From: a virus
Taxonomy: Duplodnaviria; Heunggongvirae; Uroviricota; Caudoviricetes
Direction: 5' to 3' (one strand)
Virus record (IMG/VR): IMGVR_UViG_2529292911_000011
DNA: 19,414 nucleotides
Positions 1,888-18,268 of the stretch are shown here, piece after piece. The position numbers and the translations under genes were made by a program. Every line of letters begins with the position of its first letter. The stretch's first letter is position 1. Under the pieces are notes generated by a model. It did no database searches, was not told where the DNA came from, and was given only the letters and a program-made list of their open reading frames with translations.

Positions 1888-3216
1888 CTGAGAGATCCCC
1901 TCATAATTTCCCCAAAGCGTAACCATGTGTGAATAAATTTTGAGCTAGTAGGGTTGCAGCCACGAGTAAGTCTTCCCTTGTTATTGTGTAGCCAGAATGC
2001 CGCAAAACTTCCATGCCTAAGCGAACTGTTGAGAGTACGTTTCGATTTCTGACTGTGTTAGCCTGGAAGTGCTTGTCCCAACCTTGTTTCTGAGCATGAA
2101 CGCCCGCAAGCCAACATGTTAGTTGAAGCATCAGGGCGATTAGCAGCATGATATCAAAACGCTCTGAGCTGCTCGTTCGGCTATGGCGTAGGCCTAGTCC
2201 GTAGGCAGGACTTTTCAAGTCTCGGAAGGTTTCTTCAATCTGCATTCGCTTCGAATAGATATTAACAAGTTGTTTGGGTGTTCGAATTTCAACAGGTAAG
2301 TTAGTTGCTAGAACCCATGGCTCCTTTGCCGACGCTGAGTAGATTTTAGGTGACGGGTGGTGACAATGAGTCCGTGTCGAGCGCTGATTTTTTCGGCCTT
2401 TAGAGCGAGATTTATACAATAGAATTTGGCATGAGATTGGATTGCTTTTAGTCAGCCTCTTATAGCCTAAAGTCTTTGAGTGACTAGATGACATATCATG
2501 TAAGTTGCTGATAGGTTTCCAGTTTTCCGCTCCTAGGTCTGCATATTGTACTTTTCCTCTTACTCGACTTAACCAGTACCAACCCAGCTTCTCAACGGAT
2601 TTATACCATGGCACTTTAAAGCCAGCATCACTGACAATGAGCGGTGTGGTGTTACTCGGTAGAATGCTCGCAAGGTCGGCTAGAAATTGGTCATGAGCTT
2701 TCTTTGAACATTGCTCTGAAAGCGGGAACGCTTTCTCATAAAGAGTAACAGAACGACCGTGTAGTGCGACTGAAGCTCGCAATACCATAAGTCGTTTTTG
2801 CTCACGAATATCAGACCAGTCAACAAGTACAATGGGCATCGTATTGCCCGAACAGATAAAGCTAGCATGCCAACGGTATACAGCGAGTCGCTCTTTGTGG
2901 AGGTGACGATTACCTAACAATCGGTCGATTCGTTTGATGTTATGTTTTGTTCTCGCTTTGGTTGGCAGGTTACGGCCAAGTTCGGTAAGAGTGAGAGTTT
3001 TACAGTCAAGTAATGCGTGGCAAGCCAACGTTAAGCTGTTGAGTCGTTTTAAGTGTAATTCGGGGCAGAATTGGTAAAGAGAGTCGTGTAAAATATCGAG
3101 TTCGCACATCTTGTTGTCTGATTATTGATTTTTCGCGAAACCATTTGATCATATGACAAGATGTGTATCCACCTTAACTTAATGATTTTTACCAAAATCA
3201 TTAGGGGATTCATCAG
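1888..3216 (-). mobile_element. IS10 insertion sequence, complete copy (1329 bp)
   Basis: Inside end 'CTGAGAGATCCCCTCATAATTTCCCC' at 1888; outside end (reverse complement of 'CTGATGAATCCCCTAATGATTTTGGTAAAAATCATTAAG') ending at 3216; full-length transposase between them; flanked by a 9-bp direct repeat. Length is exactly 1329 bp. Single copy, no tet genes, so not a composite Tn10. Confidence 0.95.
1901..3109 (-). CDS. IS10 transposase
   Basis: 402-aa ORF 'MCELDILHDSLYQFCPELHLKRLNSLTLACHALL...' that I recognise as the IS10/Tn10 (IS4-family) transposase; lies entirely inside the IS10 ends. Confidence 0.95.
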   Translation of the reverse strand: MCELDILHDSLYQFCPELHLKRLNSLTLACHALLDCKTLTLTELGRNLPTKARTKHNIKRIDRLLGNRHLHKERLAVYRWHASFICSGNTMPIVLVDWSDIREQKRLMVLRASVALHGRSVTLYEKAFPLSEQCSKKAHDQFLADLASILPSNTTPLIVSDAGFKVPWYKSVEKLGWYWLSRVRGKVQYADLGAENWKPISNLHDMSSSHSKTLGYKRLTKSNPISCQILLYKSRSKGRKNQRSTRTHCHHPSPKIYSASAKEPWVLATNLPVEIRTPKQLVNIYSKRMQIEETFRDLKSPAYGLGLRHSRTSSSERFDIMLLIALMLQLTCWLAGVHAQKQGWDKHFQANTVRNRNVLSTVRLGMEVLRHSGYTITREDLLVAATLLAQNLFTHGYALGKL

Positions 3217-5307: not shown

Positions 5308-6329
5308 CCGTCCAGAAGAAGACATTTTCACTGGCAGGTATGTCGCCAAAATCCAGCAATATGACGGCAAAGTCAGGCATTAATACAGCAGATGCAAGCA
5401 AAGTTTATCATTTGCTGGTGGTCGGAACGGATGCCTTAACCATACCAGAAATCTCGGGCGATGATATTAGCATTGAGAAGGTCAGCGGCTGCGCCAGAAA
5501 ATTTCTGGTCGTAGATGATGTCTTCCGCTCGTGTAGTGACTCCACAAAAACATTCGTCCACGTGCGTGACGTTAACGAAATGAGCGCGATGTACTGTGCA
5601 TCTGGTGCTTCCAATACTGAGTTTTCGGAGTCCATAAAAAAGAGCTTGCCGTTATGCGGCAACACGGTTTATGGTTATAAGGCACCTCATAAAACGGGTG
5701 CCGGGATTGGCCTCCCGCTGACAATCGAGGCGATACATGACGCGCCAGCGTCTTTTTTTGTATCGGCGCACACGCACACCTTATCAATGGTGGGCTGTAT
5801 GGGGCTACCTTCGGGTAGGCTGGTTTCCTTGATTGCCAGTAAGGCCAACTCCGTACAGTCCACCGCCAGCAAGATTGGTCTCTTGGGCGGTGGCTATAAA
5901 CCATCAATCAAGGAGGCTGCCACATGCTGGCTACTACCCCTACCCCAAAACCGCAATTTATCTGGATTATCGCCGCAGTTCGCCGCGATTGCCCGACAAT
6001 TACCGCCAAAATTCATCATATTGCTGCCGAGTCTGAACGCGATGCTCGCCGTTCTCTGGTGCGCGATCACGTCTGCTTTTTTGCTGGTCGTATCCGCATG
6101 GAGGTGGCACATGATTAAAACCTACGATGTGCATATGGATCCCCTCGAACGCACAAGCCAGATCATCACACTGACAGAAGTGATTAACGACATTCTGGTG
6201 AGCAACTCTCCCTCACGAGACGAAAGACTGAAGGCGTTACTCGCGATATTGGATCTCGCCGTTCGTGACGTTCATTTCCTGCTGGAAGGTGGACAAATGC
6301 CATGCAAAACGGGGGCAACCAATGAATAA
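5301..6329 (+). CDS. Stop-free 342-codon frame of uncertain coding status; its 3' 73 codons (from ATG 6111) are the best-supported part
   Basis: ATG at 5301 overlaps the upstream stop (ATGCTAA). The frame is open for 1029 nt. An in-frame ATG at 6111 has a strong SD 'GGAGGTGG' (6101-6108). An out-of-frame ORF with its own strong SD (5924-6118) sits inside it, so the 5301-6110 part may be non-coding or an overlapping gene. Confidence 0.3.
5924..6118 (+). CDS. Small protein (64 aa), possibly Icd-like host cell division inhibitor
   Basis: Consensus SD 'AGGAGG' (5911-5916) 7 nt before ATG 5924; stop overlaps ATG 6111 (ATGATTAA). '[27 protein letters not shown]' resembles prophage proteins annotated Icd-like, from memory only. 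Confidence 0.45.
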   Translation: MLATTPTPKPQFIWIIAAVRRDCPTITAKIHHIAAESERDARRSLVRDHVCFFAGRIRMEVAHD

Positions 6330-7601: not shown

Positions 7602-10358
7602 ATGCGAAACATTGATCTTATCCGTCAGGTTATCAGTGCGTCTGAAAACAACTGGCCTCATGTGCTGGGCTGCCTGAACATAAATGTCCCTGACTCTCCG
7701 CGCCGTCATGCTCCCTGCCCTGCATGTGGGGGCAAAGATCGATTCCGGTTCGATGACAACGGGCGCGGTAGCTTCATCTGTAATCAGTGCGGCGCTGGTG
7801 ATGGGCTGGATTTAATTAAACGCGTAAATAACTGCGACACAACAGAGGCGGCGCTTCTTGCCGCTGATGTTCTGGGTATTGATTACCGGACAACGGAAAC
7901 ACCAGAAGCCACCAGCCAGAAACGGGAACAACTGGAAACCGAGCGCCAGCGACGCGAACAGGAGCGCCTGAAAAGGGCAGAGAAGGACGAACAACAAAGA
8001 CGGGATACGTTTTCCCGTCAGTTTGATGACATGCGCAGAAAGGCTGTAAACGGCAAATCTGATTATCTGGTTGCGAAAGGGGTAGGTGATTTTACATTCC
8101 CCGTGTTGCCCGATGGATCTCTGTTGCTGGCGCTGGTGGATAAATCCGGCGCAGTCACAGCAGCACAGACTATTACCTCACATGGTGAAAAAAGACTCCT
8201 GACAGGTTCAGCAAAGCGAGGGGCATATCACGCCATAAACGCACCAGAAACAACACAGAGCATCTTAATCGCAGAAGGGCTGGCAACGGCATTATCTGCC
8301 CATTTAATTCGTCCAGAGGCGCTGACAGTGGCGGCGATTGATGCCGGGAACCTGTTATATGTCGCCCAGGTACTGCGGGATAAATTTCCTTCAGCACAAA
8401 TCATCATTGCTGCGGATAACGACCACAGCGAAGGAAGACAAAACACGGGGAGAATAGCAGCAGAAAAAGCAGCTTTATCTGTTTCTGGATGGGTGGCATT
8501 ACCCCCGACAGATCACAAAGCAGACTGGAATGATTACCACCAAAAACACGGCATTAAATGCGCCACAGAAGCGTTCAATAAGTCAATGTACCAACCACAG
8601 GGTAATGGCGTGAAACAGGAGCCACAGACCATTGAGGGAAGCGATTTTAAGGTTATGGATACCGACCCACTGAAACCAAGAATAGAAAGCCGCGAGGATG
8701 GTATTTATTGGGTATCTCCGAGAGCTGACAGCCAGAGTGGAGAAATCATCAATAACGAAAGCTGGTTATGTTCTCCGTTAAGCGTTATCGGTACTGGCAG
8801 AGACGATAAAGACCAGTATCTCATTCTTCGCTGGCTGTCGTTTGGTTCTGAAACGCCGACAACCGCTGCCATTCCACTGGCTGATATTGGTGAACGTGAA
8901 GGATGGCGCACACTTAAAGCTGGTGGGGTAAATGTCACGACCAAAAGCAGCCTCAGAGCAATACTGGCAGACTGGCTACAACGCAGTGGCTCTCGTGAAT
9001 TGTGGCGTGTTGCTCATGCCACTGGCTGGCAATGCGGAGCGTACATCATGCCTGATGGGGAAATCATCGGAACACCTGAAAATCCTGTGCTGTTCAGCGG
9101 GAGAAGCTCAGCCGCAGCCGGATATACCGTCTCAGGGAGCGCGAAAAGCTGGCGTGATAACGTGGCGCGTCTGGCCTTTGGTAACTATTCAATGATGACC
9201 GGGATCGGCGCAGCACTGGCAGCGCCATTGATTGGGCTGGTGGGCGCTGACGGGTTCGGCATTCATTTCTATGAGCAGTCGAGCGCGGGTAAGACCACCA
9301 CGGCAAACGTGGCGAGCAGCTTATACGGCAACCCTGATTTACTGCGGCTGACGTGGTACGGAACCGCGCTGGGGCTGGCAAATGAGGCCGCCGCCCACAA
9401 TGACGGATTAATGCCGCTTGATGAAGTTGGTCAGGGCGCTGATCCTGTCAGCGTTTCACAGTCTGCCTATGCGTTATTTAACGGTGTAGGGAAACTGCAA
9501 GGCGCTAAAGATGGTGGAAACCGTGATCTAAAACGCTGGCGTACAGTGGCAATCAGCACCGGAGAAATGGATTTAGAAACATTTATCGCTACTTCTGGGC
9601 GAAAAACCAAAGCCGGGCAACTGGTGCGACTGCTGAATATTCCGTTGAGTAAAGCAGTACGCTTTCACGATTACCAGAACGGAAAACAGCACGCAGACGC
9701 ACTGAAAGACGCTTACCAGCATCACCACGGCGCAGCCGGGCGTGAGTGGATTAAATGGCTGGCAGACCACCAGCAACAGGCTATTAAAACTGTTCGTGAT
9801 TGCGAAAGCAGATGGAGAAGCCTGATCCCATCCGATTATGGTGAGCAGGTTCACCGTGTAGCCGCGCGATTTGCCATTCTGGAGGCAGCATTGCTGTTAG
9901 GCGAAGTTGTAACAGGCTGGGATGCTCAGACATGCCGTGATGCGATACAGCACAGCTATAACGCATGGTTGCGCGAGTTCGGCACAGGTAACAAAGAACA
10001 TCAGCAGATTATTGAACAAACGGAGGCATTTCTTAATGCCTATGGGCTTAGCCGTTTTGCACCATTTCCATACAGCCCGGCAGATTTGCCCATCAAAGAT
10101 TTAGCCGGATACCGTCAGCGTGGAGAACATGACGAAAGCCCAATGATTTTCTACACATTCCCGGCCACATTTGAAAAGGAGATCGCATGTGGTTTCAACG
10201 CAAAACAGTTTGCTGAAGTGTTGAAAAAAGCCGGGATGCTAACCCCACCAAACAGCGGTCGTGGATACCAAAGAAAATCACCACGTATTCAGGGACGACA
10301 AATAAACGTTTATGTACTCAATTACCAGCCAGGAGATTATAACTCATCTGAAGAATGA
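7602..10358 (+). CDS. DNA primase-helicase (N-terminal zinc ribbon + TOPRIM + C-terminal P-loop ATPase), P4 alpha / PICI Pri-Rep type
   Basis: 918 aa. Cys cluster 'CPACGG...CNQCG' near the N-terminus; TOPRIM-like 'LIAEGLATALS' and 'IIAADNDHSEG'; Walker A-like 'YEQSSAGKTT'. Iteron cluster lies immediately downstream. Confidence 0.9.
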   Translation: MRNIDLIRQVISASENNWPHVLGCLNINVPDSPRRHAPCPACGGKDRFRFDDNGRGSFICNQCGAGDGLDLIKRVNNCDTTEAALLAADVLGIDYRTTETPEATSQKREQLETERQRREQERLKRAEKDEQQRRDTFSRQFDDMRRKAVNGKSDYLVAKGVGDFTFPVLPDGSLLLALVDKSGAVTAAQTITSHGEKRLLTGSAKRGAYHAINAPETTQSILIAEGLATALSAHLIRPEALTVAAIDAGNLLYVAQVLRDKFPSAQIIIAADNDHSEGRQNTGRIAAEKAALSVSGWVALPPTDHKADWNDYHQKHGIKCATEAFNKSMYQPQGNGVKQEPQTIEGSDFKVMDTDPLKPRIESREDGIYWVSPRADSQSGEIINNESWLCSPLSVIGTGRDDKDQYLILRWLSFGSETPTTAAIPLADIGEREGWRTLKAGGVNVTTKSSLRAILADWLQRSGSRELWRVAHATGWQCGAYIMPDGEIIGTPENPVLFSGRSSAAAGYTVSGSAKSWRDNVARLAFGNYSMMTGIGAALAAPLIGLVGADGFGIHFYEQSSAGKTTTANVASSLYGNPDLLRLTWYGTALGLANEAAAHNDGLMPLDEVGQGADPVSVSQSAYALFNGVGKLQGAKDGGNRDLKRWRTVAISTGEMDLETFIATSGRKTKAGQLVRLLNIPLSKAVRFHDYQNGKQHADALKDAYQHHHGAAGREWIKWLADHQQQAIKTVRDCESRWRSLIPSDYGEQVHRVAARFAILEAALLLGEVVTGWDAQTCRDAIQHSYNAWLREFGTGNKEHQQIIEQTEAFLNAYGLSRFAPFPYSPADLPIKDLAGYRQRGEHDESPMIFYTFPATFEKEIACGFNAKQFAEVLKKAGMLTPPNSGRGYQRKSPRIQGRQINVYVLNYQPGDYNSSEE

Positions 10359-10370
10359 GCTTCTTCATGT

Positions 10371-10484
10371 GCGTAGAAAAGGTGTTGGTTCAGTTGGTTC
10401 AGTTGGTTCAATTTGCAAAGAGTATTGTTTTGTAAGGATTTTATTCTTTTTATTGAACCAACACTGAACCAACAACACGGTATT
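10371..10484 (+). repeat. Iteron cluster A (putative origin of replication)
   Basis: Three tandem 9-bp 'GTTGGTTCA' repeats (10374-10400), a ~40-bp AT-rich spacer, then three inverted 'TGAACCAAC' copies (10444-10452, 10455-10463, 10476-10484). Sits directly 3' of the primase-helicase. Confidence 0.8.
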
Positions 10485-10813
10485 TTGAACCAACACAATG
10501 TGACTGAATTGATGCGCTCAACACCTGGCTGGCATCAGAGAGTGTTTTACGAGACTTTCGTAAAATCCTGTGTACAAGGGCGTGACGTTTTTGAAAGTGA
10601 GCACTACGAAATTTTCGTAGTTCAGAAAACAGCCCCTGAGAAGTTGTTATGCCTGTTCAGCAAACCATCCGCATAGCTGATCGCGAATCAAATTACCAAT
10701 GGAGCCAGAAGCAAGGGCAGAACTGAAAAGCGCCTGCCGTGAAGAGTAATGCGACACCATAAATATAGTTTTTAGAGTCCATAAAAAACCTGTCAAAACC
10801 TGACACACAGAAC

Positions 10814-10848
10814 GATGCCACCAGCTACTGAGCGGTGGCATTTTTTTG
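10814..10848 (+). terminator. Rho-independent terminator
   Basis: Stem 'TGCCACC' (10816-10822) / 'GGTGGCA' (10834-10840) with an 11-nt loop, followed by TTTTTTT (10841-10847). Confidence 0.7.
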
Positions 10849-10909
10849 TGCTGTTTGTTTCATATTTTGCAATTACGATGATGAATATTGCGATTTGTGA
10901 AACTATAAT

Positions 10910-10929
10910 AACTGTTGTTTTATACAGTT
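10910..10929 (+). promoter_or_regulatory. LexA-box-like site (putative SOS operator) in the cargo operon promoter region
   Basis: 'AACTGTTGTTTTATACAGTT' = CTGT-N8-ACAG with AT-rich centre; 15/20 identical to the box at 18749-18768, including both flanks. Lies between a 'TATAAT' hexamer (10904-10909) and the SD 'AAGGGGG' of the ORF at 10943. Confidence 0.45.
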
Positions 10930-10942
10930 CTAAGGGGGCGTT

Positions 10943-11116
10943 ATGGCTATTTCAGTAAAGCCGGTATTGATAAGTGAGAAGCAAATGGAAGCGATAAAGA
11001 AAATTCAGGAGGAGCAGCGTAAAAAATCAGAGGTAGGAGTTGCGCCAACGATCCACGAAATTGCTCGGGGATTAATGGATAAGGCGCTGGCTTACACTTT
11101 AACTGGACGTGGGTAA
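10943..11116 (+). CDS. Small protein (57 aa), possible ribbon-helix-helix DNA-binding protein
   Basis: Not in the ORF track (under 60 aa). ATG 10943 with SD 'AAGGGGG' (10932-10938). 'KPVLISEKQMEAIKKIQEE...GVAPTIHEIARGLMDKAL' has a strand-helix-loop-helix layout compatible with an Arc/CopG-like fold. Ends 4 nt before the next ATG. Confidence 0.45.
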   Translation: MAISVKPVLISEKQMEAIKKIQEEQRKKSEVGVAPTIHEIARGLMDKALAYTLTGRG

Positions 11117-11120
11117 ATCA

Positions 11121-12587
11121 ATGGCTACGTGGCAACAGGGTATTAATTCTGGTGGTTTTCTGGCTGGCATCGGTACGCAAAATGAGAATGCGCCAAAGGC
11201 AAGCGACATTAACGCAACGCTTGGTCTGATTCGCGAAAACAATGAACTGGCTCGATCAGGTGCAAATAACGTTGCTCTGACAGGTCTTCGTGGTCTGGCT
11301 GGAGTTGCTGATATTTATAAGCAGCAGCAACAGCAGGAGCGTAAAGCGGCATTCCAGAAAGGTTATGCAGATGCTTATGCGTCCGGTGACAGGGAGCAGA
11401 TGCGTAATCTTATTACAGCATTCCCAGAAGAGTTTGAGGAAGTCCGTAAAGGGATGAGTTATGTCGATGATGCTCAAAGGGATGATTATGGCAATCTGGC
11501 GCTCAAAGCACAGGTAGCCTCATCGCTTGGTCCGGGCGCATTTGGCAGGTTCATGATGGATAATGAGCAGGAGATGCGTCGTTTAGGTATCCCTCCAGAA
11601 ACTATTGCTGAAATGCAGGTTAATGACCCGCAGGGCTTCCAGCATTTCGCAGGTAATCTGGCGCTGTTTTCTCTCGGTCATGAGAAGTATTTCGATATCA
11701 AAGATCAAATGGAAAGTCGGGATATTGAGCGTGGCAAGTTGGCAGAGACAATCCGCAGCAATCAGGCTGGTGAAGCACTTCAGGCGAGAGGGCAGGATAT
11801 TAGCCGAGCAAATGCGTTAACGTCAGCATATGCACCAACAGCAGCAATGCAGAATTACAATCAGTACGCGCAAATGTTAAAGGCTGATCCAGAGGGGGCG
11901 GCGGCATTTGCGGCAGCGGCTGGAATTAATACAAACACCAAAAAATTAATGAGTGTTAGAGAAAACGATGATGGCACTGTCACAAAATACTACACAGACG
12001 GAAGTGAAGAGCAGGGAAAACTAAACCAGCCAATATCTGGAGATGGGTTTCGTCCAATAGCTTTGCCAACAGCCCAAAAGATCATGGAAAAGTCGCCAGA
12101 AGGGGCTAAAAAAGCTGCTGGATTTGCATACAGGGTTAGGGATGCTCTTGATTCAATAGATACACTGAAAGACCAGCTTAGCCCACAGCGAGTGGCGATC
12201 ATTAATAATGCTTTGGGTAATGGGACGCTGGCTAACTTAACGCTCAGCCCAGCAGAGCAGCAATACGTTGTTAATGCTAATGACGCAATAATGGCAATAC
12301 TCCGTCAGGAAACAGGGGCAGCTATCGCACCTGCTGAAATGTCAAAATATTATCAAATGTATTTCCCTCAGCCTGGCGACTCCACAAAAACCATTGATAC
12401 CAAGCGCCGGAAGATGGAAAACCAGTTCAATTCGCTGAAAGCTGCTTCTGGTCGAACTTATGATGCTTTGCGGGTTATTTCAGCAGTTGACAGAGGAACT
12501 GCTTCTTCGTCGCAGACATTGCCGCAATCTGAGCAGGTATCACAGCCAGCAGCCAGCAGTAACTTTTCTTCACTATGGGGTGATTAA
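11121..12587 (+). CDS. Hypothetical protein (488 aa), Gln/Ala-rich, function unknown
   Basis: ATG 11121 (the track's GTG at 11109 is an alternative start). Poly-Q stretch 'KQQQQQERK', Ala-rich tracts; no catalytic motif recognised. Stop overlaps the start of the next gene (TAATG). Confidence 0.8.
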   Translation: MATWQQGINSGGFLAGIGTQNENAPKASDINATLGLIRENNELARSGANNVALTGLRGLAGVADIYKQQQQQERKAAFQKGYADAYASGDREQMRNLITAFPEEFEEVRKGMSYVDDAQRDDYGNLALKAQVASSLGPGAFGRFMMDNEQEMRRLGIPPETIAEMQVNDPQGFQHFAGNLALFSLGHEKYFDIKDQMESRDIERGKLAETIRSNQAGEALQARGQDISRANALTSAYAPTAAMQNYNQYAQMLKADPEGAAAFAAAAGINTNTKKLMSVRENDDGTVTKYYTDGSEEQGKLNQPISGDGFRPIALPTAQKIMEKSPEGAKKAAGFAYRVRDALDSIDTLKDQLSPQRVAIINNALGNGTLANLTLSPAEQQYVVNANDAIMAILRQETGAAIAPAEMSKYYQMYFPQPGDSTKTIDTKRRKMENQFNSLKAASGRTYDALRVISAVDRGTASSSQTLPQSEQVSQPAASSNFSSLWGD

Positions 12588-14692
12588 TGGCTAAAGCATG
12601 GAAAGATGTTATCGCCTCTCCACAGTATCAGGCGTTAGCACCAGAACAAAAAGCGCAGGCTCAGGAGCAATACTTCAATGAAGTCGTTGCCCCGCAAGCC
12701 GGAGAAAGTGTAGAGCAGGCTAAGCAGGCTTTTTATGCTGCCTATCCACTACCATCAACGAATGAAATAGACCGATCCCAATCAGCAACTCAAAATATTC
12801 AACATACATCATCTGATAATTCTATTGCGTCAGGGTATGCAAAGTTAGCTACTCAGCAAAGAGAGGGGCTTGAGCGTTCAGCAGAACAGGGAGCCAGTCT
12901 TGGGGCTGCGATGCGCGATGCTATAACAGGCGAAAGCCGAATGACTCCAGAGATGGAGAGACTGCAAAATGTCGACCTTGCCCCAGAGTTAACCTCACTC
13001 AGCATGGATGCTCTAAAAGCTCGATGGTCTCAACTTTTCGGCTCTGACGCATCTCAGGAAAAGATTCTTCAGAGCATGGGAGCGAAATTAAGGCAGGATG
13101 AGAAGGGTAACACTATCGTTTCCCTGCCATCCGGTGATTATGCTCTGAACAAGCCGGGTTTATCGCCGCAAGACGTGGCATCGTTTCTGGCTAATGCGCT
13201 GGCGTTTACACCAGCGGGCAGGGCCGGAACGGTGCTGGGGGCCATAGGGAAATCAGCAGCTACAGATTTAGCACTACAGGGAGCCACCAGCCTCGCTGGT
13301 GGAGAAGATATTGATCCGTTACAAACGGTAATTTCTGCTGGCATTGGTGGTATTGGTAAGGGGCTGGAAAATACAGCGAGTGCGGTTTCGAGGGCTGTTC
13401 GTGGTGATATGTCGCCTGAAGCAAAGGCTGCTGTCGACTTTGCATCGGAAAGAAATCTGCCGTTAATGACCAGTGACATGCTGAAAGATAAAACCTTTAT
13501 GCAGAGTCAGGCTCAGACATTAGGCGAAAGAGTTCCTTTTTTTGGAACCGGTAAGAATCGGCTGAATCAACAACAAGCACGAGAAAATTTAGTCAGAACA
13601 TTTAGCGATGGTCTGGGTGGCATTTCTGATAAACAGCTTTATGAATCTGCGACTAAAGGGCAACAAAAATTCATTGAGGCAGCAGGAAAGCGATATAACC
13701 GCATAATTGACGCTATGGGGGATACCCCTGTCGATCTCTCAAACACGGTAAAAGCTATCGACAATCAGATTGCCGTGTTAAGCCGCCCGGGCAAATCTCA
13801 GGATAGAGCCGCGGTAAAAGTCTTGCAGCAATTTAAAGACGATATCACCAGCGGACCAAATGACCTGCGTCTGGCGAGGGAAAACAGAACCGATCTTCGA
13901 AAGCGATTTATGGCGTCATCTGACACTGTTGATAAAGATACGCTCCAGAAAGCCAGCGATATTATCTACAAGGCATATACGGCGGATATGAAAAAAGCCG
14001 TAGCCAAAAATCTTGGAGCAGACGAAGCTATTAATATGGCAAGGGTTGATCGCTCATGGTCTAAATTCAATGACATGATGGGAAGAACGCGCGTTCAAAA
14101 GGCAATAGCCAGCGGCAAGGCCACGCCTGAGGATGTAACAAAACTTGTTTTTAGCCAAAGCCCATCAGAACGTTCTCAGCTTTACAGGCTTCTGGATGAC
14201 AATGGTAGGCAAAACGCACGAGCAGCCATAGTTCAGAATGCTGTAGATAAGGCGACTGATCCGTCTGGAAATATCAGTGTTGAGAAGTTTATTAATGCGT
14301 TACACCGGAACAGGAAGCAATCAGCAACTTTCTTTAAAGGCATACATGGAAAGGAACTGGACGGCGTTATTAAATACCTCAACGATACAAGACACGCGGC
14401 AAAAGCGAACGTTCAAAACTTAAATGGTCAGCAGCTTTATGGATTGTTAGTTGGTGGTGGCATCATAAACGCAGCAGTATTAGCGGGGATGCTAAAAACG
14501 GCTGCGTTTGTTGTTCCTGCTGCTGGTGCCGTAGGCGGAGCAGCGAAGGCATACGAAAGCCCTGTTATACGAAATGCCTTGTTACGTCTGGCAAATACGC
14601 CAAAAGGTAGCACAGCATATGACAGAGCGATCAGTACGGTCACACAATCACTGACCACAGCAGCACAAGCATCGCAAAAGGAAGCTCAATAA
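12587..14692 (+). CDS. Hypothetical protein (701 aa), helical low-complexity with a C-terminal Gly/Ala-rich hydrophobic segment, function unknown
   Basis: Translationally coupled to the upstream gene. Residues ~617-656 'LYGLLVGGGIINAAVLAGMLKTAAFVVPAAGAVGGAAKAY' (nt ~14435-14554) look like a glycine-zipper/transmembrane segment. No nucleotide-binding or nuclease motif recognised. Confidence 0.85.
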   Translation: MAKAWKDVIASPQYQALAPEQKAQAQEQYFNEVVAPQAGESVEQAKQAFYAAYPLPSTNEIDRSQSATQNIQHTSSDNSIASGYAKLATQQREGLERSAEQGASLGAAMRDAITGESRMTPEMERLQNVDLAPELTSLSMDALKARWSQLFGSDASQEKILQSMGAKLRQDEKGNTIVSLPSGDYALNKPGLSPQDVASFLANALAFTPAGRAGTVLGAIGKSAATDLALQGATSLAGGEDIDPLQTVISAGIGGIGKGLENTASAVSRAVRGDMSPEAKAAVDFASERNLPLMTSDMLKDKTFMQSQAQTLGERVPFFGTGKNRLNQQQARENLVRTFSDGLGGISDKQLYESATKGQQKFIEAAGKRYNRIIDAMGDTPVDLSNTVKAIDNQIAVLSRPGKSQDRAAVKVLQQFKDDITSGPNDLRLARENRTDLRKRFMASSDTVDKDTLQKASDIIYKAYTADMKKAVAKNLGADEAINMARVDRSWSKFNDMMGRTRVQKAIASGKATPEDVTKLVFSQSPSERSQLYRLLDDNGRQNARAAIVQNAVDKATDPSGNISVEKFINALHRNRKQSATFFKGIHGKELDGVIKYLNDTRHAAKANVQNLNGQQLYGLLVGGGIINAAVLAGMLKTAAFVVPAAGAVGGAAKAYESPVIRNALLRLANTPKGSTAYDRAISTVTQSLTTAAQASQKEAQ

Positions 14693-14753
14693 CAGATGGC
14701 CATGGATGGTTGGTTATAATAGTAATTAGTATTTTTTCAAATAGTTATGAACA

Positions 14754-15152
14754 TTAACACTTGCCTTTAACATTGCCGACAAATGAGCCTGTAAATGAGC
14801 CTATATCAGATCGACTAATTGTTCGTGTATGGATCACTTTTCCGTCATTTGAGATTGCCCATGTGACAAGCGTCAGTTGACCATCTCGATAGCTTCTTCC
14901 CATCATGGCATTCGGAGATAGCGGGTAATAATCAATACCTCCACCTATACCATCTTTTGCCAAGATAAGATCCGCCTTCTCTTTACTTATTACCAAATGA
15001 AAGGTATCTGGTATAGATGATAACTTATAGTTATACCCATCTGAACTTGAGGCTTCTTGTCCTTTCAGATCACCAATAATCCAGCATTCAGCGTTCGCTC
15101 CAAAAGAAGCAAATAATAAACCGGAGACAACCAATCGCTTCAATTGATTCAC
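14754..15152 (-). CDS. Small secreted protein with Sec signal peptide (133-aa precursor)
   Basis: GTG start at 15152 with strong SD 'AAGGGAGGG' 5 nt upstream on the minus strand; N-terminus 'MNQLKRLVVSGLLFASFGANA|ECW' is a classic signal peptide with an AxA site. The track's upstream extension to 15278 would bury the signal peptide and is rejected. AT-rich. Mature protein has Cys near both ends. Confidence 0.65.
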   Translation of the reverse strand: MNQLKRLVVSGLLFASFGANAECWIIGDLKGQEASSSDGYNYKLSSIPDTFHLVISKEKADLILAKDGIGGGIDYYPLSPNAMMGRSYRDGQLTLVTWAISNDGKVIHTRTISRSDIGSFTGSFVGNVKGKC

Positions 15153-15291
15153 ACCAACCCTCCCTTTAGCGTTGTTTAGAATGGCAATCATCATATATCC
15201 AAGACATGGCATTTGGTACATAGCTTGGGTCGGGATTTCAAATCCGATCCCCGTTGATGGGGCCGTTACAGTGCGCACATATCCGCTTTAT

Positions 15292-15552
15292 GTGAAACAG
15301 GAAGATTTTTCTGATATCACTGCCACAGCAAAACACCAATTTCGAGACAAGTACGCGTGCGAGGGGTATCAGTTGCAAAAAATTTTGCAACTACGTCCGA
15401 CCAGTATGCACACGATGGCGGGGGGATACCATAAAACTGTTCTCTACATGAGACAGAGTGGTGGTGATGTGTTGATTATCGGCGTATATGCGCACAGGAC
15501 GCGCTATGACGATGTTTTATGCGGGTACACCAATCACATGTATCTGGTGTGA
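15292..15552 (+). CDS. Hypothetical small protein (~86 aa), possibly RelE/ParE-like fold
   Basis: C-terminal 'GGYHKTVLYMRQSGGDVLIIGVYAHRTRYDDV' loosely fits the RelE/ParE core pattern. Start is uncertain (GTG 15292 or 15271; no clear SD). No antitoxin partner seen. Confidence 0.3.
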   Translation: MKQEDFSDITATAKHQFRDKYACEGYQLQKILQLRPTSMHTMAGGYHKTVLYMRQSGGDVLIIGVYAHRTRYDDVLCGYTNHMYLV

Positions 15553-16185
15553 TAAATCGCGTTACATGACCTCTCATGTTGTGCTGGTGGTTATCACGAC
15601 GTTCTGAATCTGGCCTTTGCCTGGTATTTTGCGACAAGTACGCGCGCGTAGCATCGAAATAATCGGATGGCGTATGCTGCTGGTAATATGAAGACCGATA
15701 GCATTAACCGAAAGGAGAAAGACTTCTCGATAACGGCAAGGGGGCTGAATTGCGAGGCGAGATTAAGCAACTGTCTTGAACGTAAAAATCATGGAGCAAC
15801 ATGATGGTACGATTCATTCCATTCTTCGTTCTTTCTGAGCATTGCGTTCAGGCTTAGTCAAAATTAGTGTTGCGAGCGGACCTATTAGTAATTGTTGGTG
15901 CGATGCGCCTGTTATGGATTGTTATGGTTGTGGCAGGCCTGATTAATATCCAGTATGACCACCAGCTATGAGAGGCCACCTCAGTGGTTCGCAGTTGCAG
16001 GTTTGCACTCAGGTTCGCAGGGTTTTGGCTACTTTCACGTGCGAACCTGCAGAATTGCAAAGGACAACTAAGTCCTCTGGCCAACTCCCGGTTTATGAGC
16101 GACACAGTCCGCCTGGCGCATCGTTTTCGTCGAGTGCGCCCATCAGCTTGTCCATGGACTATCCACCACTCGATATTAAAGCTAA

Positions 16186-16371
16186 TCATTGGTTGCCAGC
16201 CCGCGAATCAAGTTTGTTCTGGATCCAAGCTTCAACCTCCTCAAGCGACCATCTAGCTGATCTACCAATTTTAACTGGCTGTGGAAACGTGCCCGTCTTA
16301 ACCCATGAGTAGATTGCCGTTTTCTTGAAGCCCGTTCTGAGCATGACTTCGCTTAATTTGATAAGGCGCAT
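16186..16371 (-). CDS. alpA: AlpA-family transcriptional regulator, second copy in inverted orientation
   Basis: 61 aa 'MRLIKLSEVMLRTGFKKTAIYSWVKTGTFPQPVKIGRSARWSLEEVEAWIQ' is a textbook AlpA HTH pattern. Divergent in sequence from the copy at 3652. Confidence 0.8.
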   Translation of the reverse strand: MRLIKLSEVMLRTGFKKTAIYSWVKTGTFPQPVKIGRSARWSLEEVEAWIQNKLDSRAGNQ

Positions 16372-16623
16372 AGAGGCTCCTCTGCTTTAGATTAAGCATA
16401 GTGACAATCTGGCTTTGGGCGGTATCCAAAAGCGAGGTATCCATGTTGGTATCCACCAAAACGCTGTTTACCAAAAAAGTTACCACCGGAACAGGACATT
16501 TTGAGCTGTAACTTAACACATAGCATATGGAGTTCACGCATAGACTTCACGCACAACGGCTCCGGCCAGTGAAGAATCACCCTGGCTGGCAATATAATGC
16601 CGATCACCATCAGAGGGGAATCC

Positions 16624-16815
16624 ATGACACCACGAGAAATCGAGCTGCTGACCATTGCCAAGCTGGAGCATGACGGCCACCAGCTCAGCCCGGCAGAACT
16701 GCGGGAATTAAGGCGCCAGCTGGCAGAGGGCCCTGTAATAGCCAGGCGGTACCGCGAAATGATGACCAGCCACGCATATCGCTGGAGCAAACCAGCGCCG
16801 CTCCGTGCGCGGTGA
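16624..16815 (+). CDS. Hypothetical small protein (63 aa)
   Basis: ATG 16624 preceded by SD 'GAGGGG'; 'MTPREIELLTIAKLEHDGHQLSPAELRELRRQLAEG...'. Two direct 'TTCACGCA' repeats (16533-16540, 16546-16553) lie upstream. The overlapping minus-strand ORF 16392-16790 is W/R/C-rich and looks spurious. Confidence 0.35.
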   Translation: MTPREIELLTIAKLEHDGHQLSPAELRELRRQLAEGPVIARRYREMMTSHAYRWSKPAPLRAR

Positions 16816-16890
16816 GCAGCACCTAACCAGCACTAGACAAGCCCTGTGCTGGTGGATGTCCCTCATAATTAGCGGTTTTTAAACGGCGTG

Positions 16891-17013
16891 TTGGTTCACG
16901 GCCTCTTTTTGTTGGTTCAAAAATGGGGTGTGTTGGTTCACATTTTGCGAATAATCCTTTTAAAAACAATACTCTTTGCAAATTGAACCAACTGAACCAA
17001 CTGAACCAACACC
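16891..17013 (-). repeat. Iteron cluster B (second ori-like / cis replication region), inverted relative to cluster A
   Basis: On the minus strand: three tandem 'GTTGGTTCA' (plus-strand 'TGAACCAAC' at 16984-17010), an AT-rich spacer, then three dispersed copies (16891-16898, 16912-16919, 16933-16940). Positions 16963-17013 are the exact reverse complement of 10371-10421 (51 bp). Confidence 0.8.
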
Positions 17014-17046
17014 TTTTTGCTTATCTATATAGTCTGAGAGGCAGAA

Positions 17047-17334
17047 ATGATAAGGGACAGGAAAGCTGAAGAGCTGGAGTTAAAAGGGCTATGCCGGAGA
17101 GCTGCCACACGATGGGCAGAAGTCATGACGCTGGCAGATGGCGATAAAGAACGTGAACATGCAGCAAACAGACGCTCTGAATGTATCCGTAGGGCGGCAC
17201 GCCCACCAGCAACTACAGACAGATTCGGAGACTTAAGACAGGCAGTTAAGCGAACGCATTCAGCTCTTGGTATGGATGAGGAAGCGAGAGGGTACTTCAG
17301 GCGTTATCGCGATAAAGATTGCCAGCTACGATAA
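17047..17334 (+). CDS. Hypothetical basic protein (95 aa)
   Basis: ATG 17047 with SD 'GAGAGG'; Arg-rich; immediately downstream of iteron cluster B. No family recognised. Confidence 0.55.
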   Translation: MIRDRKAEELELKGLCRRAATRWAEVMTLADGDKEREHAANRRSECIRRAARPPATTDRFGDLRQAVKRTHSALGMDEEARGYFRRYRDKDCQLR

Positions 17335-17503
17335 AGCAAAGGAGGTGTCTTACTACAATGACCAAGCAAAACTGTCGTTGCTTTCGCATAGCATCAGCTA
17401 AAAGATCAAGACACCCAACATCGCATTAATAAGTATAATCAATTTGCTTCTTTCAACATTTGCTATAGAGTTTTTGAACCTTAATGGTTTATGAGCATCT
17501 ATA

Positions 17504-18268
17504 ATGACTACAACGGTATATGATCGTGTTAACGCCTTAGTAGCGACCGACTCTAGGTGGTCTGTTGATCTTAGCCCACATGGCTACGATGGTCATATCC
17601 TGTATATTGACGATACCGGCTTCGGTAAGCTAGCTCCACGAAATGATTTTGTTATGCTTTTAGCCGGTGATGGTCTTTTGATTCAGTTATGGAAGCATTG
17701 GTGGCGAGGAGACCTATCTCAACAAGAACCACCAGTTGTTTTACCTACTGGTCAATCGGTAAATTTACATATTGTGAAAAAATCAACTAATGAAGTGATT
17801 TTTGATAAAGGTCAAAAATTAGTTGTAAAAAATAACGAAACGGAAGAACTGTTCGCTGTCTTTACAGGCTCAGGATGCGGTGCTGCTGCGCAAAACTGGA
17901 TGTATAGCCATTGCGCAAGATCAGCAATTGAAGAATCTAAAAAGCTTGACCCATACACTGGCGGCACTGTACGTTTTTTAGACTTCAGGACTAACGCATC
18001 ATTAGTAGAAGACTCTGTTTCAACCATTAGCGAAGTAAACGAAGCTCTATTGCAGAGGGGGCTGATTATGGATACCAAAAACCCACATTCACCACACGTT
18101 TCTATCAGTGCACAAGAAGTTGCTGAAGTTCGTCAAATGCTGGTTAGTGGTTCAATTACCCCATGTGCACCAGTAGGCCAAAGAACCCAAGATTGGGATG
18201 ACAACTCCAAATTGCGTTTAGCAAATGCTATTCAGCGTATTCGTGAAGAAGAAGCACAAATGCGATAA
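17504..18268 (+). CDS. Hypothetical protein (254 aa), AT-rich, function unknown
   Basis: Long ORF in a relatively AT-rich segment, followed by a strong hairpin terminator. No motif recognised. Confidence 0.75.
   Translation: MTTTVYDRVNALVATDSRWSVDLSPHGYDGHILYIDDTGFGKLAPRNDFVMLLAGDGLLIQLWKHWWRGDLSQQEPPVVLPTGQSVNLHIVKKSTNEVIFDKGQKLVVKNNETEELFAVFTGSGCGAAAQNWMYSHCARSAIEESKKLDPYTGGTVRFLDFRTNASLVEDSVSTISEVNEALLQRGLIMDTKNPHSPHVSISAQEVAEVRQMLVSGSITPCAPVGQRTQDWDDNSKLRLANAIQRIREEEAQMR

Follow-up and report, generated by a model that had tools for sequence, protein, structure and literature searches.

A Hex-like protein with a predicted Sec leader in the sieA slot of an Escherichia coli island, a candidate for superinfection exclusion

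An unannotated 'hypothetical protein' found in about 2% of complete Escherichia coli genomes can be tied, by its sequence, to hex of phage 434, a gene that is genetically defined but mechanistically obscure. It is encoded on the minus strand, at positions 14754 to 15152, of a 19,414-nucleotide stretch of DNA filed as IMG/VR virus record IMGVR_UViG_2529292911_000011 (the window). We put at somewhat better than even the chance that it is a periplasmic superinfection-exclusion protein acting on genome delivery by P22-like phages. This reading rests on its homology to Hex together with its place in the sieA slot beside P22-type ejection genes, and it gives substance to the guess, made in the original prediction, of an immunity or exclusion role on a mobile element. 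Export signals, a predicted barrel and the sieA slot combine into a testable alternative to the sole published mechanism for Hex, and they mark the Hex-like protein as a soluble candidate for inhibiting P22-type ejection machinery. A false toxin-antitoxin lead was removed as well.

Start site, leader and mature domain

The mechanically called reading frame that contains the minus-strand gene runs from 14754 to 15278, and PGAP starts a longer form of the gene at an ATG at 15191. We prefer the GTG at 15152, giving 132 codons and a stop, because it alone is preceded by a Shine-Dalgarno sequence and because the cargo of sister islands diverges at this point. That Shine-Dalgarno sequence (GGGAGGG, 15158 to 15164, minus strand) stands 5 nucleotides upstream of the GTG, within the backbone common to all cargo variants. 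The first 21 codons (15090 to 15152) specify a Sec signal peptide, in which K5 and R6 are followed by a hydrophobic core and by A-N-A at positions -3 to -1, with signal peptidase I cleavage predicted between ANA and E. Up to this site the 132-residue precursor reads MNQLKRLVVSGLLFASFGANA, and the 111-residue mature domain (14757 to 15089) then runs ECWIIG...GNVKGKC, its two cysteines being residues 2 and 111 of the mature form (C23 and C132 in precursor numbering). A signal peptide, a strong ribosome binding site and a mature domain of about 112 residues with a cysteine near each end had all been predicted for this gene, and all are borne out. The gene is real, and its product is probably exported from the cytoplasm.

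The leader is the only hydrophobic stretch of the protein, and the remainder is predicted to be a soluble beta-barrel. An AlphaFold2 model built from a 48-sequence alignment has a mean pLDDT of 88.2, with values above 90 across the mature domain, and shows the leader as a separate helix of low confidence. The mature domain is modeled as a closed meander barrel of nine antiparallel strands, the first and last of which carry the two cysteines. The barrel would thus be closed by a C23-C132 disulfide, for whose formation export would be a prerequisite. A conserved lipoprotein had been named as the alternative identity for the secreted protein. This is ruled out, as the cysteine lies at +2, not +1, with D, E, N or Q at +1 across the family; the +2 position marks the precursor as a signal peptidase I substrate with no lipobox.

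A third subfamily of Hex proteins

The protein has no match in Pfam, NCBIfam or PADLOC. Among the PHROGs, only the minus-strand gene of the divergent pair was matched, by a family of unknown function (phrog_2651, E=1.3e-22). Searching phage genomes with tblastn gave full-length matches at 30-33% identity (E between 1e-11 and 5e-15) to 434 Hex, Sf6 gp38, HK446 (gp39), HK633 and Emek orf129; the match to 434 Hex itself covers 98% of the query at 29.6% identity (E=4e-13). A profile built from three subfamilies recovers approximately 100 clusters, all labeled 'hypothetical', from E. coli, Salmonella, Citrobacter, Yersinia, Klebsiella, Enterobacter, Pseudocitrobacter and Aeromonas, and the minus-strand protein scores E=1.4e-56 against the family profile. 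The family has no Pfam entry and no solved structure, and Pfam domains are absent from all its proteins; the one match that was flagged (P0024) looks like a fusion with the upstream repressor. On this sequence evidence, the gene is a new member and third sequence subfamily of the Hex family.

The features that point to export are shared across the family. In the 48-sequence alignment C23, G31 and W98 are invariant, and conservation reaches 90% or more at W24, D45, Y75, G85, G126, V128 and C132. A leader of 11-27 residues precedes the mature part in 47 of the 48 homologues (17-27 residues when one truncated entry is set aside). In these 47, position -1 is A (42 sequences) or S (5) and position -3 is S, A, V or T; a hydrophobic core is present in all, and one or more basic residues (Lys or Arg) stand close to the start in nearly all. 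The cysteine at +2, following D, E, N or Q, is likewise found in 47 of 48 homologues, and 45 of 47 have exactly two cysteines in the mature part.

The matches among phage genomes fall into two groups. The first group lies directly 3' of cI in 434, lambda imm434, HK446, HK633, Sf101, Huey and Chlobot, and includes gene 38 of Sf6; members directly after cI in lambdoid prophages are therefore expected to be expressed in lysogens. In Enterobacter lambdoid prophages, the hex homologue overlaps the end of cI. In the second group, formed by Emek (a P22-like phage of Salmonella; orf129) and ST-35, the gene directly follows, and converges on, the gp16 injection gene, as in the window. P22-like prophages carry a hex-like gene as the last of a string running from mnt through a Rap1a-domain gene, again convergent on gp16. 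In these prophages (loci L027 to L029, 4399-5390), the lysogen-expressed mnt operon thus includes two small, apparently exported proteins. In Aeromonas, the hex homologue is located in a variable region adjoining recombinase genes. Judged by gene order, all family contexts are either lysogen-expressed or island cargo.

The sieA slot as a swappable cassette

In P22-like phages, sieA is located between genes 16 and 9, and its product blocks DNA injection by P22-like phages, with escape mutations located at the C-terminal ends of gp16 and gp20 (Leavitt et al. 2024, PMC10883804). The slot in the window (14693 to 15152) was compared with those of island loci L002, L003, L009, L010 and L011. In alignments of these sister islands, sequence identity ends immediately after the common ribosome binding site and GTG (approximately position 15147) and is not regained until the gp16 gene ends. 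The slot is therefore a cassette hotspot with sharp boundaries, one at the ribosome binding site and GTG and the other at the gp16 stop.

Four kinds of cargo were found in it. Among 5426 complete E. coli genomes, 121 carry the Hex-like gene; sister islands have a multi-transmembrane protein of about 116 residues or a second type of multi-transmembrane protein. The fourth, at locus L011, is a 204-residue membrane protein that matches the PHROG 'superinfection exclusion SieA-like' (E=1.9e-4) and has RYPGEA in its C-terminus, which fits the SieA motif FxRYPxEAxxFNK (Leavitt et al. 2024, PMC10883804). The minus-strand protein of the window has no match to the SieA PHROG and no FxRYPxEAxxFNK motif in its sequence.

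The original prediction held that the divergent genes at this locus are both AT-rich and were acquired separately. Both parts stand for the minus-strand gene, which has 40.4% GC against 47.0% for the window and is a swappable cassette. Neither holds for the plus-strand frame, which is average in composition (45.9-46.4% GC against 47.0%) and belongs to the island backbone.

Upstream of the slot lies a block of 608 bp (15153 to 15760) that is part of the island backbone and occurs in 545 of the 5426 complete E. coli genomes. The slot gene's promoter and 5' leader probably lie within this block. No convincing promoter, in the sense of a strong consensus, and no terminator were found for the gene. 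Folding of the leader region gave unpersuasive z values of 0.42 and -1.99 and no significant RNA structure, and a search of 14700-16400 with Rfam gave no match. Six-frame comparison of 15153-16186 with P22-like and lambdoid loci also yielded no match, nor did blastn and megablast searches of the region against phage genomes return any meaningful DNA match.

A P4-like island with P22-type ejection genes

The chromosomes of several E. coli strains match the segment from 14600 to 15900 at 100% identity, and in strain ECONIH5 the island sits between yicC and dinD. Its backbone includes a tyrosine integrase (1 to 1260), an int-alpA RNA (1269 to 1335), an AntA/B antirepressor and a TOPRIM/DUF927 primase (7602 to 10358). 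A copy of IS10 (1901 to 3171) is inserted just 3' of the integrase, with a transposase frame of 402 residues (1901 to 3109) and RNA-OUT (3102 to 3171, 98.8 bits). At the IS10 position, ECONIH5 has an 846-bp hypothetical gene, and it has further downstream an IS66 copy that is absent from the window. The antisense RNAs isrK (65 bits) and C4 (79 bits) stand in tandem at 5682 to 5870, upstream of Ash/Icd-like genes, and form an RNA immunity module of the P1/P4 type.

Downstream of the primase, and convergent on the Hex-like gene, are two plus-strand ejection-protein genes: a gp20-like gene (11109 to 12587; Pfam Inj_translocase, E=6.6e-84) and a gp16-like gene (12587 to 14692; PHROG DNA transfer protein, E=4.5e-161). 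PGAP labels these genes 'injection protein' and 'phage DNA ejection protein'. Sister islands additionally have gp14-like (DUF2824) and gp7-like genes; the island of strain D8 (locus L002, 1-5637) carries gp14, gp7, gp20 and gp16, and the window only gp20 and gp16. In several genomes gp16 survives only as a pseudogene, and the ejection module thus appears to be a P22-like prophage fragment in decay, joined to what looks like a P4-like island backbone. For this union of a P4-like backbone with a P22-type virion module (window positions 7602 to 14692), the gp16 pseudogenes favor a prophage relic over a satellite that supplies its own ejection proteins. Our literature search found no report of islands or satellites with ejection-protein genes.

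The right part of the island holds a second variable region, approximately 15737 to 17046. In the window, it contains an IS110-family transposase relic of 95 nucleotides (15766 to 15860, minus strand), derived from the 3' end of the gene and ending in LNAMLRKNEEWNESYHHVAP followed by the stop, and an AlpA-type helix-turn-helix gene (16186 to 16371, minus strand). The relic is 96% identical to the end of an annotated IS110 transposase, and about 2300 E. coli genomes have its sequence at the ends of IS110-family transposase genes. A cluster of overlapping inverted repeats (GGTTCGCAGTTGCAGGT and ACTTTCACGTGCGAACC, with others) occupies 15986 to 16051, a little downstream of the AlpA-type gene. 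Other islands have at this position ImmA/IrrE with a partner, an Abi family protein, a Doc toxin or small hypothetical proteins, and the region looks like a hotspot for defense and accessory genes. After this variable cargo stands a small PerC/ANR-like regulator gene (17047 to 17334), conserved at the right end of the island. It is followed, within the region 17047 to 18268, by a gene for a 254-residue protein that matches the PHROG 'peptidase HslV family' (E=2.8e-13) and is conserved as well.

Proposed function of the Hex-like protein

In the proposed mechanism, the Sec leader would direct the protein to the periplasm, where the mature part would fold as a soluble beta-barrel stapled by its disulfide. 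The barrel might then interfere with penetration of the envelope and crossing of the peptidoglycan, or with the conduit that the ejection proteins provide for DNA. Exclusion would be directed against incoming P22-like phages and possibly others; given that identity to Hex is only about 30%, phage specificity may differ from that of Hex.

A periplasmic location would equally suit an inhibitor of, or immunity protein against, a cell-wall-degrading enzyme, either a phage lytic transglycosylase or lysozyme or an amidase effector of a type VI secretion system (T6SS), in place of a block of the conduit. Lysozyme inhibitors are found among small periplasmic beta-barrels. Such a role is also suggested by the neighbors of the Hex-like genes: the gene before the homologue in P22-like prophages has a Rap1a domain, and Rap1a is a family of immunity proteins against T6SS amidases; the gp16-like protein next to the gene in the window matches a PHROG labeled transglycosylase, and the corresponding gene of one island is annotated with a lytic transglycosylase domain. 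We consider this reading unlikely to be the right one, and prefer that of a superinfection-exclusion protein acting on phage genome delivery.

The only published mechanism for Hex places the protein in a different compartment. Hex stands for 'heterologous exclusion' (PMC3564112). As cited there, lambda-imm434 lysogens of Salmonella exclude P22 and hex mutants do not (Susskind and Botstein 1980, via PMC3564112). Shkilnyj et al. (2013, PMC3564112) assigned Hex a cytoplasmic role, in which it blocks the RecA-stimulated autocleavage of repressor. Deletion of hex increased spontaneous induction in recA+ cells only, and sHex, a stable purified fragment of 61 residues that covers E43 to N103 when the open reading frame is read as 158 residues, kept the 434 and P22 repressors from being cleaved in vitro; overexpression of full-length Hex stopped growth (PMC3564112). 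Searches of the later literature on Hex found nothing beyond this report.

These deletion and in vitro data are the case for reading the minus-strand protein as a cytoplasmic factor that shields a LexA-like prophage repressor from RecA-stimulated autocleavage and thereby stabilizes lysogeny. Against it stands the conservation, throughout the family, of a cleavable Sec leader and a cysteine pair, with which a cytoplasmic role in repressor cleavage appears hard to reconcile. Export was never considered in the report, whose text makes no mention of a signal sequence or the periplasm (PMC3564112). Upon translation of the 434 locus (hex, L005 2438-2914), E43 of the 158-residue reading corresponds to E19 of a 134-residue form and is the first residue past the predicted leader cleavage site, between ANS and ECW. 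The fragment thus begins at the predicted cleavage site, and its end, N103, falls in the middle of the barrel in the predicted fold, so that sHex spans only the first half of the barrel. Furthermore, no S24 repressor gene adjoins either the island gene or the slot next to gp16 in P22-like phages. Taken together, these points leave repressor protection an improbable function for the protein.

We return to exclusion at the envelope, and tentatively extend it to the whole family, although we hold this broader proposal to be a little more doubtful than an even call. Hex proteins, that of 434 included, would be Sec-exported barrels and a second, soluble class of exclusion protein in the sieA slot. 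They would block P22-type genome delivery in the periplasm, for example by binding the gp20/gp7 conduit or at the cutting of peptidoglycan, and repressor protection would be a side effect or an artefact of the half-barrel.

The divergent plus-strand reading frame

The plus-strand frame (15172 to 15552) begins with a TTG at 15172 and has an in-frame ATG at 15181 and GTG at 15292. It had been proposed as a possible RelE/ParE-like toxin lacking an antitoxin partner. No relationship to toxins emerged: neither the window form nor a short form matched Pfam, NCBIfam or PADLOC (E<=0.1-1) or the PHROGs (E<=0.01). An exhaustive phmmer search of 1.84 billion representative proteins returned 15 proteins, all from this locus, and tblastn against phages found nothing. 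The RelE/ParE assignment is thus not supported, as a real member would be expected to match many proteins of a very large superfamily. A word-based search likewise found only copies from the same locus, with many differing truncations and frame switches.

The reading frame itself is unstable. In an alignment of 13 copies, it depends on a G-run (15420 to 15425) whose length differs from genome to genome (G5, G6 or G7), on an A-run and on a 53-nucleotide segment (15358 to 15410) that is present or absent between islands and is absent, for example, from locus L008. Changes in homopolymer length leave the frame shifted in 8 of the 13 sampled copies, and substitutions between copies, counted by hand, have no third-position bias. 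The 53-nucleotide segment contains a perfect palindrome with arms of 10 nucleotides, AGTTGCAAAA-AA-TTTTGCAACT (15371 to 15392), of which the arms are conserved and the two-nucleotide spacer is AA or TT; it could be an operator. AlphaFold2 gave no confident fold or usable model for the frame (mean pLDDT 34.8), no Shine-Dalgarno sequence precedes the GTG at 15292, and PGAP calls the frame only in some genomes, a minority, having passed over it in 11 of the 13 RefSeq island copies that were examined. The absence of an antitoxin partner was confirmed: small frames in 15153-15291 and 15553-15850 include no antitoxin candidate and have no family match, and part of the second interval is the IS110 relic. 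The plus-strand frame, not being maintained, is probably not a functional gene, though it might conceivably be what remains of a decayed toxin.

A functional small protein starting at 15172 or 15292, possibly a highly diverged toxin of the RelE/ParE type, is very improbable given the broken frames, the missing profile matches at permissive thresholds, relatives confined to the locus, the absence of a Shine-Dalgarno sequence and partner, the unconfident model and the silence of PGAP in most copies, and this despite a C-terminal stretch, GYHKTVLYMRQSGGDVLIIGVYAHRTRYDD, that by eye loosely resembles the beta-hairpin and HR..Y region of RelE/ParE, a C-terminal frame free of stops in every copy, two different indel combinations that restore the long frame, and the PGAP annotation in some genomes.

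Comparison with known systems

The closest known proteins are 434 Hex, Sf6 gp38 and HK446 gp39 (PHROG 2651), with which the island protein shares full-length homology of about 30%, size and status as cargo of prophages or mobile elements. It also has the family's leader ending in A-x-A/S, the mature start x-C-W-(I/V), the C-terminal FVG.V.G.C and the two cysteines. The genes of the 434 type differ in overlapping the end of cI and being read from PRM, whereas the window gene, of a third subfamily, converges on a gp16 ejection gene as in Emek, here within an island that is not a phage. The plus-strand frame resembles RelE/ParE in its length and, loosely and by eye, in its C-terminal pattern, but differs in the lack of a profile match, an antitoxin and a stable frame, and no confident fold is predicted for it.

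P22 SieA shares with the Hex-like protein its position, directly after gene 16 and on the opposite strand, and a sister island encodes a SieA-like protein in exactly that slot. Hex, according to the genetics of 434, also excludes P22. The two proteins have no sequence similarity, and their architecture differs: SieA has three to four transmembrane helices and a cytoplasmic FxRYPxEAxxFNK motif, and the Hex-like protein only a cleavable leader and a soluble barrel.

Several small phage-encoded envelope proteins, including Spackle (Sp) and Imm of T4, Llp of T5, and Cor, block the entry of superinfecting phages. Such a block at the envelope is the mode of action that we propose for the Hex-like protein. 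None of the four is homologous to it; Spackle has a helical fold, and Llp and Cor belong to the lipoproteins, unlike the Hex-like protein with its cysteine at +2 and not +1. In its proposed action, the Hex-like protein would resemble the inner-membrane protein SieA in outcome and T4 Spackle in compartment.
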